Notes: a model not told the origin generated them from the letters alone. A stretch of 48,006 nt of DNA from a virus (IMGVR_UViG_2671180673_000006), one strand, 5' to 3'; positions 15,586-18,691 are shown, numbered from the stretch's first letter. Program-made: numbers and translations.

Positions 15586-15610
15586 AAACCCGCCGCGAGC
15601 GGGTTTTTTT
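15586..15610 (+). terminator. intrinsic terminator (tR'-like)
   Basis: AAACCCGC-cgcga-GCGGGTT followed by TTTTTTT, 70 nt after Q. Confidence 0.6.
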
Positions 15611-15668
15611 ATGGCTGAACGTTAAATGCGCTGGTGGTTGTGAATGCCGACTGCGGCGGTATTTTGGC

Positions 15669-15947
15669 GTGACGGCGCAGGTGCCGTATACCGATGTCTG
15701 GACGCATAAACCGGTGCAGTTCTATCCCGGGAAACATCCGTGCGAAAAACCGGCAGAAATGCTGCAGCAGATAATCAGCGCTAGCAGTCGTCCGGGTGAC
15801 CTGATTGCAGATTTTTTCATGGGGTCGGGTTCGACAGTGAAAGCGGCACTGGCGCTCGGGCGTCGTGCAATTGGCGTTGAGCTGGAGACTGAACGTTTTG
15901 AGCAGACGGTTCGGGAAGTACAGGATTTAGTCAGCCAGAACGGATGA
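15669..15947 (+). pseudogene. C-terminal fragment of a beta-class N4/N6 DNA methyltransferase
   Basis: 92-aa ORF with GTG start; has the SAM-binding motif ...DLIADFFMGSGSTVKAA... but no catalytic (D/N)PPY segment, which normally lies N-terminal; upstream holds only a 4-codon ATG ORF. Confidence 0.5.
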
Positions 15948-15987
15948 TATTGAAGAATTAATTACGCGTCGTTATTATGCGGCTCCC

Positions 15988-16063
15988 GGCCCTTTAGATC
16001 AGTGGTGAGAGCGAGCGATTCATAATCGCTAGGTCGCTGGTTCAAATCCAGCAAGGGCCACCA
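15988..16063 (+). tRNA. ileZ: tRNA with CAU anticodon (Ile2/lysidine-type by resemblance to E. coli ileX; Met not excluded)
   Basis: 76-nt cloverleaf drawn by hand: acceptor GGCCCTT/AAGGGCC, anticodon loop TTCATAA (CAT at 16021-16023), T-arm GGTTCAAATCC, 3' CCA encoded; D-stem has an A11:G24 mismatch. Confidence 0.75.
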
Positions 16064-16070
16064 TCACATA

Positions 16071-16147
16071 CCGCCATTAGCTCATCAGGATAGAGCGCCA
16101 GCCTTCGAAGCTGGTTGCGCGGGGTTCGAGTCCTCGATGGCGGTCCA
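16071..16147 (+). tRNA. argN: tRNA-Arg (anticodon UCG)
   Basis: 77 nt: acceptor CCGCCAT/ATGGCGG, D-stem GCTC/GAGC, anticodon stem CCAGC/GCTGG with loop CTTCGAA (TCG at 16105-16107), T-loop TTCGAGT, CCA encoded; the C1:G72 start is unusual. Confidence 0.65.
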
Positions 16148-16160
16148 TTATCTGTACCCT

Positions 16161-16237
16161 GCGTTATTAGCTCAGCCGGACAGAGCAATTGCCTTCTAAG
16201 CAATCGGTCACTGGTTCGAATCCAGTACAACGCGCCA
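16161..16237 (+). tRNA. argO: tRNA-Arg (anticodon UCU)
   Basis: 77 nt: acceptor GCGTTAT/ACAACGC (one A:C mismatch), D-stem GCTC/GAGC, anticodon stem ATTGC/GCAAT with loop CTTCTAA (TCT at 16195-16197), T-loop TTCGAAT, CCA encoded. Confidence 0.75.
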
Positions 16238-16247
16238 GACTTATTTT

Positions 16248-16278
16248 TCCCGGCTCGCTTTTGCGGGCTTTTTTTTAA
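16248..16278 (+). terminator. candidate terminator after the tRNA cluster
   Basis: GCTCGC-tttt-GCGGGC (one G:U pair) followed by TTTTTTTT. Confidence 0.4.
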
Positions 16279-16729
16279 ATGTCTCACAATTCAGACGGTT
16301 GACAGTTGTCTGTTTTGCGGGGAGTTTGTTAAAAGAAACTGGCATGGTGAATCCCCCTGTGCGGAGGGGCAATCAGCAACTGGTGTTTTGTCACCGACCC
16401 TTATCCTTTCTGTGCGGGTTCAGGTGCTGATACTGAACTCACCGGGAGGCACCCGGCATCATGTGCATGATGATACAGATACGCGGCTTTAGCCCCTCTC
16501 CGGAGGGGCTTTCTTGTGGGCAAAAAAAAGCCCGAGTGGGTTCGGGCAACAGCATGAGATATACATTTTTATAATCGAATGGATTTTAACCAGAATTCAT
16601 AAGGCTGCGCAACTGCGCGGTCTTTTTCGAATTGCGGGCTGTCGTCTCTCTTCTGCCATTGTCCTGTAACTTCCGGACTTCAGCCCGCTCCTTATTTTAC
16701 TCACAATATTATCCCGGCCGGGAGGATTC

Positions 16730-18691
16730 ATGGCATTTAAACACTATGACGTGGTCAGGGCGGCATCGCCGTCAGACCTTGCGAAACGACTGACACAAAA
16801 ACTGAAGGAGGGGTGGCAGCCATTTGGCAGTCCGGTGGCCATCACGCCTTATACCCTGATGCAGGCCATTGCGGCGGAAGGTGATGTCACCACACCTGTG
16901 GTGGTGAAGCCGTCGGATGGAGAAGGCGCAGTTATCAGCACCACCAGCAACCCGGAGTATTACTTTGTTGTTGCCCTGGCCGGGCAGTCAAACGGTATGG
17001 CGTATGGTGAAGGGCTTCCACTGCCGGAGACATATGACCGTCCGGACCCGCGTATTAAACAGCTGGCGCGTCGCAGCACTGTCACGCCGGGTGGTGCGTC
17101 CTGTAACTACAATGACATTATTCCTGCGGACCACTGCCTGCATGATGTTCAGGATTTGAGTAAGTTTTCACACCCGAAAGCCAGTGCAGCTCAGTATGGA
17201 TGCGTGGGGCAGGGATTACATATCGCGAAGAAATTGTTGCCGTTTATTCCGGCGAATGCCGGTATTCTTCTGGTTCCGTGCTGCCGTGGTGGTTCTGCAT
17301 TTTTGGCGGGCGATGAAGGTACCTTCAGCGAATCCACCGGCGCAAGCGAGACCTCGGCACGCTGGGGTGTAGATAAGCCACTGTACAAGGACCTGCTTAC
17401 CCGTACTCAGGCCGCACTGAAGGCCAACCCTAAAAATATTCTGCTTGCAGTGGTCTGGATGCAGGGCGAGTTTGATTTGAAACAGGGTGCATACGCCACT
17501 CAGCCGGGGCTGTTTGATTCCATGGTGGAAAAATATCGTTCTGACCTGTCGGAATTCGGAGGTCAGTGTCTCGGGGGCTCTCCGTCATCGGTTCCCTGGA
17601 TTTGTGGCGACACGACCTACTACTGGAAGCAGACTTATTCTTCGCAATACGATGCGGTGTATGGTGCATACAAGACGAAATCCGCAAAAAAAATCTTCTT
17701 TGTGCCGTTTATGACGGATGAAAACGGGCGAAATGTGGGTACCAACGAGCCGTCAGAAGATCCGGATGTTGCGGATATTGGGTATTACGGAGCCGGTGGT
17801 CGAACGGACGCCAAAACCTGGACGACGGCTGACCGTAAAACGCATTTTGGATCATGGGCACGTCGTGGGATTATTTCCGACCGTCTGGCAACGGCGATTC
17901 TTGTGCATGCCGGGAGAAACGCTGAATTCATTACCGGAAAACAGCCTGATACGGTGAAGCCCACCGGACCTTCCGGTGAAGGTACGGAGAGAGAGCCGGA
18001 AGCCCCGGTCAGTAACCGAACCCTGATGAGTCTGCTGGCGTCCGGCGAAGACCTGGCATCACAGGGCTGGCGCTATTATCACAAACCGGCGAGCGGAGAC
18101 AATGTTAACAAAAACATTGCTGAAGCGGTGGTCAGTGATGCGGGGGCTACGGGAGGTAAGGCCCTGCAACTGAATAAACCGGAAAACCACATCTGGTTTC
18201 TGGAGCATGATGCAGCCGGACAGGGAGTGGAGTTACTGAAGAAGGGGGGACGTGTGAGCGTACGGTTTAAGTTGCCGGGTTCACTGGTGCCGAATCAGTT
18301 TGCCCTGGGCATTTACTGGCAGTTGTCGTCCCTGCCGGAGGGAGTGACGCTGGCAGAGGAAGGCAACGACATGCTGATGTCCTTCTTCCTGCAGACGGAT
18401 GCGACGAACCTGAACGCGATGCACCACAAGAAGCCGAATGCGAAGCTGGATACGTTCGGGGTCTTTGATAACGGATGGCACACACTGGCTTTTGAGTTTG
18501 CCGGAAACAACAGCATTCAGGTGACGCCGGTACTGGATGAGAAACGGGGGACGCCGTTCACACTGGTGAAATCTCCGGCATCAGGGGCGGCGGACAAACT
18601 GCAACTGACAGGCATATCAAAGGCGGCGACATATACGCTGCTGATTGACAGTGTGAAGGTGGAAGTGAACAACGCGGATGCCGCGGCATGA
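16730..18691 (+). CDS. nanS-p: prophage sialate O-acetylesterase (NanS-p type; DUF1737 N-terminus plus SGNH/SASA esterase domain)
   Basis: 653 aa; ATG at 16730 preceded by GGGAGG; N-terminal MAFKHYDVVRAASPSDLAKRL... (DUF1737-like) and the GQSN block (...VALAGQSNGMAYGEG...) of SGNH hydrolases; sits where Stx phages carry it. Confidence 0.7.
   Translation: MAFKHYDVVRAASPSDLAKRLTQKLKEGWQPFGSPVAITPYTLMQAIAAEGDVTTPVVVKPSDGEGAVISTTSNPEYYFVVALAGQSNGMAYGEGLPLPETYDRPDPRIKQLARRSTVTPGGASCNYNDIIPADHCLHDVQDLSKFSHPKASAAQYGCVGQGLHIAKKLLPFIPANAGILLVPCCRGGSAFLAGDEGTFSESTGASETSARWGVDKPLYKDLLTRTQAALKANPKNILLAVVWMQGEFDLKQGAYATQPGLFDSMVEKYRSDLSEFGGQCLGGSPSSVPWICGDTTYYWKQTYSSQYDAVYGAYKTKSAKKIFFVPFMTDENGRNVGTNEPSEDPDVADIGYYGAGGRTDAKTWTTADRKTHFGSWARRGIISDRLATAILVHAGRNAEFITGKQPDTVKPTGPSGEGTEREPEAPVSNRTLMSLLASGEDLASQGWRYYHKPASGDNVNKNIAEAVVSDAGATGGKALQLNKPENHIWFLEHDAAGQGVELLKKGGRVSVRFKLPGSLVPNQFALGIYWQLSSLPEGVTLAEEGNDMLMSFFLQTDATNLNAMHHKKPNAKLDTFGVFDNGWHTLAFEFAGNNSIQVTPVLDEKRGTPFTLVKSPASGAADKLQLTGISKAATYTLLIDSVKVEVNNADAAA

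Follow-up and report, generated by a model that had tools for sequence, protein, structure and literature searches.

An unoccupied moron slot beside predicted sRNA genes in the stx-free late region of a lambda-like Escherichia coli prophage

Genes and features from Q to nanS-p

The window, that is, the whole 48,006-nucleotide stretch of viral DNA analysed here (IMGVR_UViG_2671180673_000006), contains a late regulatory region whose features lie on the plus strand unless otherwise noted. A DUF968 gene in the NinG position (14130-15119; Pfam DUF968, E 6e-81), given for context and 95.6% identical to its Stx2_95 homologue, is directly followed by the gene for a QuuD-type late antiterminator Q of 126 aa (15137-15517), which covers positions 1-118 of the 118 in Pfam PF06530 Phage_antitermQ (E 1.4e-52) and whose identical sequence in UPEC129 is annotated by RefSeq as an antiterminator Q family protein. 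A tR'-like intrinsic terminator, AAACCCGCCGCGAGCGGGTTT plus a T-run (15586-15612, hairpin 15586-15606; terminator scan), begins 69 bp past the Q stop. The stretch 15554-15610 is 83% identical to positions 1949-2005 of the 933W record L001, the final 23 bases of which are the first terminator annotated after pR'/qut, while 15518-15585 is identical to Stx2_95 except at one aligned position and is partly alignable with 933W. No canonical late promoter was flagged by the promoter scan. With a Q-family gene and a close intrinsic terminator tR' upstream of late genes, the segment has the composition of a lambdoid Q-antitermination late module, as predicted from sequence. Terminator-like hairpins are frequent in the neighbourhood, the scan giving 7 in 15000-17000 against 2.0 +/- 1.4 in shuffles.

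Between the Q-proximal terminator and the tRNAs sits a truncated DNA methyltransferase pseudogene (15651-15947) that retains only the C-terminal ~98 codons and matches only profile positions 137-220 of the 221 in Pfam N6_N4_Mtase. It is annotated in UPEC129, a genome with the identical sequence, as a pseudogene, "incomplete, missing N-terminus". In comparison with Stx2_95, 1182 bp are deleted (2064-3245 of record L004), corresponding to a small ORF and the first 762 bp of the methylase. Both this pseudogene and the sRNA homology of the spacer described below were missed by the first-pass annotation.

Three tRNA genes follow in tandem: one with a CAU anticodon, homologous to ileZ (15988-16063; Rfam tRNA 67.8 bits), a tRNA-Arg (UCG) homologous to argN (16071-16147; 56 bits) and a tRNA-Arg (UCU) homologous to argO (16161-16237; 64.4 bits), all found by ARAGORN and by alignment to 933W. 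The order CAU, UCG, UCU between Q and the stx slot identifies them as the ileZ-argN-argO phage tRNA cluster, and the block that holds them (15837-16275) is 90% identical to the ileZ-argN-argO region of 933W and 92.7% identical to Stx2_95. The CAU tRNA is labelled Met by ARAGORN and by PGAP (UPEC129), and its homologue is labelled Ile in the annotation of 933W and EDL933; we take its sequence to resemble ileX-type tRNAs. Just 5' of the tRNAs, the promoter scan gave a promoter-like site, TTGAAG-17-TATTAT (15950-15978), which aligns with 933W L001 2339-2367, annotated "pT", and is thus the predicted positional homologue of this putative tRNA promoter. Rare codons were considered as a rationale for the tRNAs and judged not decisive, since their enrichment is modest overall (AUA 5.2, AGA 3.9 and AGG 3.6 per 1000) and high only in Q. 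The tRNA module ends at an intrinsic terminator (16252-16277; terminator scan), which matches the terminator at 21385-21408 of the 933W record, annotated "upstream of the stx genes" and located just 5' of stx2.

On the other side of the spacer, a gene of the nanS-p type for a sialate O-acetylesterase of 653 aa (16730-18691) is the first protein-coding gene of the late operon past the slot. Its product has DUF1737 (PF08410, E 9e-16), SASA (PF03629, E 6e-9) and DUF6645 (PF20350, E 2e-43) domains, and a GQSN serine motif is seen in the translation. The combination of DUF1737, SASA and a C-terminal carbohydrate-binding-like domain in a prophage late region places it in the NanS-p class, as a predicted esterase. 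Genes of the nanS-p type were already known from non-Stx prophages (PMC10462455). The first-pass annotation had listed Q, a terminator, the three tRNAs and a DUF1737/SGNH esterase, and Pfam, ARAGORN and the terminator scan recovered every one of them at or beside the places it had given.

A small RNA locus in the spacer

The interval 16238-16729 had been described as holding only hairpin-rich non-coding sequence. It has no protein-coding gene, the ORFs of at least 60 aa there being all spurious, and the palindromes are present; the word "only", however, does not stand, because the interval is a conserved locus of two sRNA genes recognised by Rfam. Homology of this 490-bp spacer to the one between stxB and nanS-p in Stx phages extends over its full length.

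The first gene belongs to the STnc100 family (16313-16521; Rfam RF02076, model positions 1-206 of 206, 131.7 bits against a gathering score of 47, E 1e-29). The palindrome CCCCCTGTGCGGAGGGGC at 16353-16370 is its first hairpin and AGCCCCTCTCCGGAGGGGCT at 16491-16510 is its terminator, and the helices of the model are kept in the match. Members of the family occupy the same position in 933W, Stx2_95, PhiR12 and the EDL933 non-Stx prophage. A prophage sRNA of the STnc100 type has been reported upstream of an esterase gene (Zhu et al. 2026 bioRxiv), and in Stx2 phages STnc100 lies 75 nt 3' of stx2 (PMC12370729).

The second gene is on the minus strand, convergent with STnc100 and 4 nt from its 3' end, and codes for an AsxR-family "anti-sRNA" (16525-16577; Rfam RF02703, model positions 1-53 of 53, 63.0 bits, exactly the gathering score of 63); the AsxR of 933W is equivalently placed. 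The AgvB model (RF02702) gave 43.4 bits on the same sequence, under its gathering score of 56. The terminator of the anti-sRNA, GCCCGAACCCACUCGGGC plus a U-run, is intact in the minus-strand terminator scan, and a TAAAAT box resembling a -10 element is located 6 nt 5' of the model start. The gene also agrees with AsxR in where it lies: antisense to an sRNA immediately 3' of the moron slot, downstream of PR', and converging with it. Other matches in the spacer below the Rfam thresholds, such as Leu_leader, Trp_leader and OmrA-B, were treated as noise from terminator hairpins.

In EHEC, members of this family sponge core sRNAs, AsxR acting on FnrS and AgvB on GcvB. Compared with the AsxR consensus, the anti-sRNA of the window is identical from nucleotide 29 on, which covers the 3' part and the terminator, and has six substitutions, four of them in the variable 5'/seed part. 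One of these, U8A in the 5' seed, puts an A.G mismatch where the predicted duplex of AsxR with FnrS has a G.U pair, and the predicted seed-only duplex (AsxR nt 1-11 with FnrS nt 101-112) goes from -7.7 to -5.0 kcal/mol; this energy test has no discriminating power, since with RNAduplex even genuine AsxR was not separated from shuffled controls (fraction 0.36). The FnrS query sequence matched at 100% in at least 5390 genome records, and Rfam recognised it as well (frnS, 134.8 bits). Because U8A weakens the predicted seed pairing with FnrS, the target of this anti-sRNA may differ from FnrS or may have been lost.

That the interval might instead be a functionless spacer, with its hairpins serving only as terminators or insulators and its Rfam matches reflecting sequence inheritance, seems improbable to us. 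The AsxR score exactly at threshold and the mutated seed point in that direction, as does STnc100, whose proposed role is termed hypothetical by its authors (PMC12370729). Against it stand the full-length STnc100 match with its helices, the retention of STnc100 in place in divergent phages though the surrounding spacer is only 75-83% identical, and the intact terminator and well-placed TAAAAT box of the anti-sRNA. Homologues are abundant Hfq-bound transcripts in EHEC, including those from non-Stx prophages (PMC4104026).

The empty slot and the absence of stx

By comparison of junction strings among the window, 933W, Stx2_95, the EDL933 non-Stx prophage and PhiR12, together with pairwise blocks, an unoccupied moron slot was located at 16276-16283 (T-run/AAATGTC/TCACAATTCAG). 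Where 933W and Stx2_95 have stx, the window has only this gap of less than 10 bp. Synteny with Stx2 phages, as claimed in the first-pass annotation, is real, and so is the claimed absence of the toxin genes: the ~1.34 kb present in the slot of Stx2 phages (stx2 promoter, stxA, stxB and 45 bp) is absent. Remnants were searched for with Stx2 sequences as queries (933W cassette, Stx2A and Stx2B). The 933W stx cassette matched the window (blastn, short words) only at the shared terminator, 16245-16275, and the best tblastn match of Stx2A or Stx2B to the whole 48-kb window had E = 0.35. The phage is thus not Stx-converting, since phages of that kind have stxA and stxB in the stretch from the late promoter region to the lysis genes. 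Stx1-occupied sites were compared through the phage collection only. At the cassette ends, occupied and empty junctions were compared for a target-site duplication or repeats; only a weak ATCTG/AAATGTC resemblance was seen and was judged to be chance.

Of 5426 complete E. coli genomes, 1023 have the empty junction uninterrupted, among them that of EDL933 in a non-Stx prophage, and empty-site genomes reach 98.5-100% identity across the entire 3.65-kb region. In other genomes, matches to the left side only end at 16275-16277 and matches to the right side only begin at 16272. Strain EC6868 has TerB/DUF3927 genes in the same slot, and identity to Stx2_95 falls from 93-96% to 74% exactly there. These data are consistent with the suggestion that the locus is a recombination hotspot, and the alignment of the flanks to Stx2 prophages, which had been proposed as a check, gave similarity on both sides with the breakpoint at 16276-16283 and without stx remnants.

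The first-pass annotation had left two readings side by side, an stx-negative relative or a phage that has lost the toxin cassette. Under the latter, the prophage derives from an Stx2-converting phage, and stx2AB was either deleted precisely or lost when the phage recombined with an stx-negative lambdoid prophage already resident in the host. Several observations would suit such a history: the early half of the prophage is ~92.6% identical to lambda-like Stx2a and Stx2c phages (Stx2a_1447/WGPS2 and Stx2c phages; 59-67% of length), the module from Q to the terminator is 93-96% identical to Stx2_95, which has stx2a in its slot, and the region has already undergone at least one deletion, the 1182-bp truncation of the methylase. 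However, no stx remnant was found, the junction is the widespread empty site and has the same form in the EDL933 non-Stx prophage, and close flanks do not occur next to stx2. When a chimeric query of stx2B and the window spacer was searched against 389 stx2-positive genomes, the best match was ~80% overall, corresponding to ~70-77% for the spacer alone; the best stx2-occupied left flank gave 94.9% over a chimeric query, corresponding to ~93% for the flank alone. In none of the 5426 complete genomes does stx2 adjoin the right-hand allele. Since flank identity in stx2-positive prophages is at most ~93% on the left and ~70-77% on the right, no sequenced Stx phage is plausible as a recent parent, and an stx-free lineage is favoured over recent loss of the toxin. 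We consider derivation from an Stx2-converting phage unlikely, although an ancient loss of stx by module exchange in a mosaic phage may have occurred.

An assembly artefact, in which a repeated prophage was collapsed or mis-joined, would also produce an apparent absence of stx. Lambdoid prophages are repetitive and often mis-assembled, and the window is mosaic with respect to UPEC129 past 19925. But the 3.65-kb region is contiguous and 99.9-100% identical in five independent complete genomes (UPEC129, AH21H025, NZ_CM185152, M15 and EC9682), and this, together with the junction's contiguity in the 1023 complete genomes, leaves such an artefact a negligible chance.

We therefore read the segment, with considerable confidence, as the part of a lambda-like prophage that controls late transcription and contains the moron site. 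This prophage, apparently complete, would sit at mlrA (yehV) in an E. coli of the extraintestinal type and belong to an stx-free lineage. An integrase adjoining mlrA, a repressor, and lysis and structural genes form its context. No attL/attR repeats were found in the window, because it ends inside the tail-fibre region of the prophage, and its right end is hence unlike UPEC129. A toxin-free late region is normal for a lambda-like prophage of non-toxigenic (extraintestinal-type) E. coli, so the original observation is correct but ordinary. Tree et al. (2014) had already published the layout, the "moron site" and the occurrence of the sRNA pair in prophages of the non-Stx kind, and by itself the case matters little and opens no new question.

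Late transcription, significance and comparison with known late regions

A mechanism can be drawn by homology with lambda, 933W and Sakai Sp5. The late promoter 3' of Q would fire constitutively and its transcripts would halt at the terminator 15586-15612; upon induction, Q would render RNA polymerase terminator-resistant, so that it would pass first the remnant of the methylase and the tRNA trio, then the terminator 16252-16277 and those of the sRNA genes, and go on to transcribe nanS-p, the genes for holin and endolysin and the structural genes. The tRNAs, having their own promoter-like site, would decode AUA, CGN and AGA/AGG codons. The boundary between the terminator of the tRNA module and TCACAATTCAG would be a module boundary, filled by stx2AB or TerB/DUF3927 in other phages and empty in the window, and directly 3' of the slot the sRNA genes would converge, STnc100 on the late strand and the AsxR-family anti-sRNA opposite.

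The case shows the late layout attributed to Stx phages to be a general lambdoid scaffold with a sharply bounded slot, for which stx is one cargo among several, and the "spacer" beside the slot to be a conserved sRNA locus that is maintained where the toxin is absent. In annotation, the joint presence of tRNAs and nanS-p should therefore not count as evidence of a former Stx phage. The window can serve, too, as a clean reference for the empty site when the boundaries of stx cassettes are mapped.

Extraintestinal pathogenic E. coli typically carries the chu haem-uptake locus. It is conceivable, though we give the idea a low chance, that the AsxR-family variant and STnc100 are expressed in lysogeny and rewire core sRNA networks (FnrS-to-chuS, or a new target through the altered 5' seed), with a fitness or virulence benefit in ExPEC independent of stx, and that the empty slot could accept stx by homologous exchange. 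If true, a slot flanked by ~93%-identical tRNA sequence and by the sRNA/nanS-p module would offer a route to hybrid ExPEC/STEC strains.

The window has in common with 933W / Sakai Sp5 and Stx2_95 the order Q, terminator(s), tRNA CAU-UCG-UCU, terminator, slot, STnc100, convergent anti-sRNA, nanS-p, DUF1378, holin and endolysin, and its tRNA block is 90-93% identical to those of the Stx2 phages. Stx2_95, to which Q and its flank are 95.6% identical, differs from the window in having stx2a in its slot and a methylase that is not truncated. Missing in comparison with the Stx2 phages are stx2AB and the stx promoter (~1.34 kb), and the region of the second terminator of 933W, in which the 74-nt StxS sRNA would be expected, is without counterpart: the segment that would include StxS (L001 ~2006-2225) gave no match in 14000-20000 of the window. 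The spacer and nanS-p allele of the Stx2 phages are only 71-80% identical to those of the window. For the 933W gene L0105/Z1466, nanS-p of the window shares the domain architecture and the first-late-gene position (PMC10462455, PMC8065619) at ~71-80% DNA identity to L0105. The virion module of 933W is unlike that of the window, which is phage 21/lambda-like and long-tailed. 933W, named as an example in the first-pass annotation, is not the nearest relative. Resemblance in the early half is to lambda-like Stx2a/Stx2c phages with long tails, and in the structural half to phage 21 (~92% identity) and lambda.

Among the sRNAs, the window shares with the STnc100/PasD-related prophage sRNAs the full-length match and the position 5' of the esterase gene; its STnc100 allele is divergent and scores 131.7 bits, whereas the 933W copy scores 207.7 bits. 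With the AsxR/AgvB family it shares a gene of ~53 nt on the strand opposite to the late operon, just past the STnc100 terminator. A convergent sRNA pair has been described 3' of stx2B, and the same organisation was found at a "moron insertion site" in the non-Stx prophages Sp3, 4, 9, 10, 11 and 17 (PMC4104026). With such non-Stx O157:H7 prophages (Sakai Sp3, 4, 9, 10, 11 and 17, and that of EDL933 at ~1.26 Mb), the window shares the empty junction GCGGGC(C)-T8-AAATGTC-TCACAATTCAG, the three tRNAs, STnc100 and nanS-p. "Stx-phage-type" was accordingly too specific a name for what is the generic Q-tRNA-sRNA-nanS-p layout of many lambdoid prophages. The O157:H7 prophages differ in their Q allele and in the cargo that separates Q from the tRNAs, which in EDL933 consists of a CPBP protease and an HTH gene, and the hosts differ as well, the O157:H7 prophages residing in EHEC and that of the window in an extraintestinal-type E. 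coli.

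Layout of the late region

The elements listed for this region in the first-pass annotation, namely Q, a terminator, three tRNAs and an esterase gene, have all been found within 15100-18700, and its observation of such a late region without stx is correct. Its interpretation holds in outline, but the label "Stx-phage-type" is over-specific, this layout being a general one among lambdoid prophages, and a DNA-methylase remnant (15651-15947) was overlooked. Q (15137-15517, plus strand) encodes 126 aa that match Phage_antitermQ over its full length (E 1.4e-52) and is followed, 69 bp past its stop codon, by a strong intrinsic terminator at 15586-15612 (AAACCCGCCGCGAGCGGGTTT and a T-run). 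The segment 15554-15610 is aligned at 83% identity with 1949-2005 of the Stx2 phage 933W (record L001), which ends in the first annotated terminator past pR'/qut. Terminator-like hairpins are enriched in the terminator scan (7 vs 2.0 +/- 1.4 in shuffled sequences). Within 14000-20000 of the window (compare 15612-15837), nothing corresponds to the next 933W segment (L001 2006-2225), which carries the second post-pR' terminator and gives rise to the 74-nt StxS sRNA, and a StxS-like RNA is probably not made by this prophage.

The methylase remnant, located after the terminator and before the tRNAs, covers only the final third of the N6_N4_Mtase profile, and an identical genome has it annotated as a pseudogene. 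With the lambda-like Stx2a phage Stx2_95 as reference, a 1182-bp deletion at 15649-15651 (L004 2064-3245) has removed 762 bp from the start of the methylase gene together with a small ORF, leaving the C-terminal pseudogene; in E. coli EC6868 the gene is intact (1059 bp, L007 2697-3755).

Three tRNAs with anticodons CAU (15988-16063), UCG (16071-16147) and UCU (16161-16237) were detected by ARAGORN. The D-stem of the first has an A11.G24 mismatch, the corresponding pair in 933W ileZ being C11-G24. Upstream, a promoter-like site (15950-15978) occupies the position of 933W pT. Rare-codon counts weakly back a tRNA-supply role. The CAU tRNA (Met according to ARAGORN and PGAP, but Ile as annotated in 933W and EDL933) may be a slightly degraded copy. 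The long ORF that comes next (16730-18691, 653 aa) has DUF1737, SASA and DUF6645 domains, which is the NanS-p architecture.

The stx slot and the history of the toxin

The gene order in 933W is Q, pR', qut, two terminators, pT, ileZ, argN, argO, a terminator, stxA2, stxB2, a 486-bp gap and L0105 (nanS-p). Both 933W and Stx2_95 are collinear with the window through the terminator past the third tRNA, until 16275. Because homology ends there and restarts only at TCACAATTCAG (16284), 45 bp past their stxB stop codon, TTAAATGTC stands in place of about 1.34 kb comprising the stx2 promoter, stxA, stxB and a short tail. The same empty junction is present in a non-Stx prophage of EDL933, and 1023 of 5426 complete E. 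coli genomes have it as one contiguous match. Other genomes have left-only matches that stop at 16275-16277 and right-only matches that start at 16272, which marks a sharp module boundary within the T-run. In EC6868, a non-STEC vaginal isolate, TerB-family and DUF3927 genes (L007 4219-4811) lie in this slot, with tRNA-Arg UCU and its terminator ahead of them and nanS-p behind, showing that cargo other than stx can sit there.

Neither the 933W cassette nor the Stx2A/B proteins, searched against the whole 48-kb window, revealed a stx remnant. A chimeric query joining the stx2B 3' end to the window's spacer found 389 stx2-positive genomes; the best overall identity was about 80%, so that the spacer part itself is about 70-77% identical, and the window's right-hand allele was never seen adjoining stx2 in this search. 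A second query, joining the window's left module to the stx2A 5' end, gave at best 94.9% overall, corresponding to about 93% for the left module. Empty-site genomes show 98.5-100% identity over both flanks, and identity to Stx2_95 drops exactly at the slot, from 93-96% to 74%. The first-pass annotation had proposed either a stx-negative relative or toxin loss. On the lack of remnants, the empty junctions, both chimeric searches, the Stx2_95 identity drop and the EC6868 cargo, we favour the former: a lineage free of stx, belonging to a mosaic population in which the cargo slot is fixed. Ancient loss of stx through module exchange appears improbable.

Small RNAs in the spacer

Positions 16280-16729 are homologous end to end to the stxB-nanS-p spacer of 353 phage records, with 77% identity to 933W and the best value, 83%, to stx-negative PhiR12 phages. 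The whole interval of about 490 bp (16238-16729) had been described as holding only hairpin-rich non-coding sequence; the palindromes at 16353-16370 and 16491-16510 are real, but the spacer is not anonymous, being a small RNA locus. Rfam searches found a full-length STnc100 (16313-16521, plus strand; 131.7 bits vs a gathering score of 47), of which the two palindromes are the first hairpin and the terminator, respectively, and a convergent AsxR-family RNA (16525-16577, minus strand), here called anti-sRNA, at 63.0 bits, exactly its gathering score; at the latter locus the AgvB model scored under its threshold. The minus-strand terminator GCCCGAACCCACTCGGGC with its T-run is the anti-sRNA's own. 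STnc100 occupies the equivalent position in 933W, Stx2_95, PhiR12 and the EDL933 non-Stx prophage.

This arrangement is one already published: convergent sRNAs AsxR/EcOnc02 and EcOnc27 lie 3' of stx2B at a "moron insertion site" downstream of PR', with the same organisation in non-Stx prophages Sp3, 4, 9, 10, 11 and 17 and Stx1 prophage Sp15 (Tree et al. 2014, PMC4104026). STnc100 has been placed 75 nt downstream of stx2 (PMC12370729) and tied to esterase-flanking prophage sRNAs (bioRxiv 10.64898/2026.05.13.724894). Non-Stx prophages with the empty slot, with the sRNA pair and with nanS-p have all been described previously. Six positions distinguish the anti-sRNA from AsxR; since one of these changes, U8A, falls in the part predicted to base-pair with the FnrS terminator loop, the anti-sRNA may have a different target. 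Both sRNAs are probably expressed in the lysogen. An additional plus-strand hairpin and T-run at 16600-16630 (CTGCGCAACTGCGCGG TCTTTTTCG), upstream of the anti-sRNA promoter region, is kept in 933W and PhiR12 in our alignment, and could be a further late-operon terminator or a piece of the anti-sRNA promoter context.

By homology, Q-modified polymerase from the late promoter would pass the terminators at 15586, 16252 and 16491 and read through to nanS-p and then the lysis and structural genes.

Prophage context and relatives

E. coli UPEC129 carries the 3.65-kb region at 100% identity, and many extraintestinal isolates from humans, birds and dogs carry it at 98-100%. The UPEC129 prophage, inserted between mlrA (yehV) and btsS with its integrase adjoining mlrA, has a full set of early, lysis and structural genes; the window's integrase (75-1361, minus strand), mapped via the UPEC129 annotation, abuts the 5' end of mlrA, the site that the Stx1 prophage occupies in O157:H7. 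Homology to Stx2a_1447 begins at position 1 of that record and window 18, which suggests attL nearby. The window's right end is inside the tail-fibre region, within the prophage, and the right attachment site is therefore absent from it. The tail-fibre region (43296-46960) is unlike UPEC129, with no megablast match past 43197.

Between a P21-type holin (19316-19585) and an endolysin (20517-21050), 19590-20480 holds an ORF of 296 aa whose N terminus carries a DUF1327 domain. UPEC129, from which the window parts past 19925, has instead a YdfR family gene and a reverse-strand ORF there, and this site may be a second cargo slot, within the lysis cassette.

Lambda-like Stx2a phages (Stx2a_1447, WGPS2) and Stx2c phages match the early half of the window at about 92.6% identity; for the structural half the matches are phage 21 and lambda-type phages, at about 92%. 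Because of these identities, the prophage is akin to the long-tailed Stx2 phages rather than to 933W.
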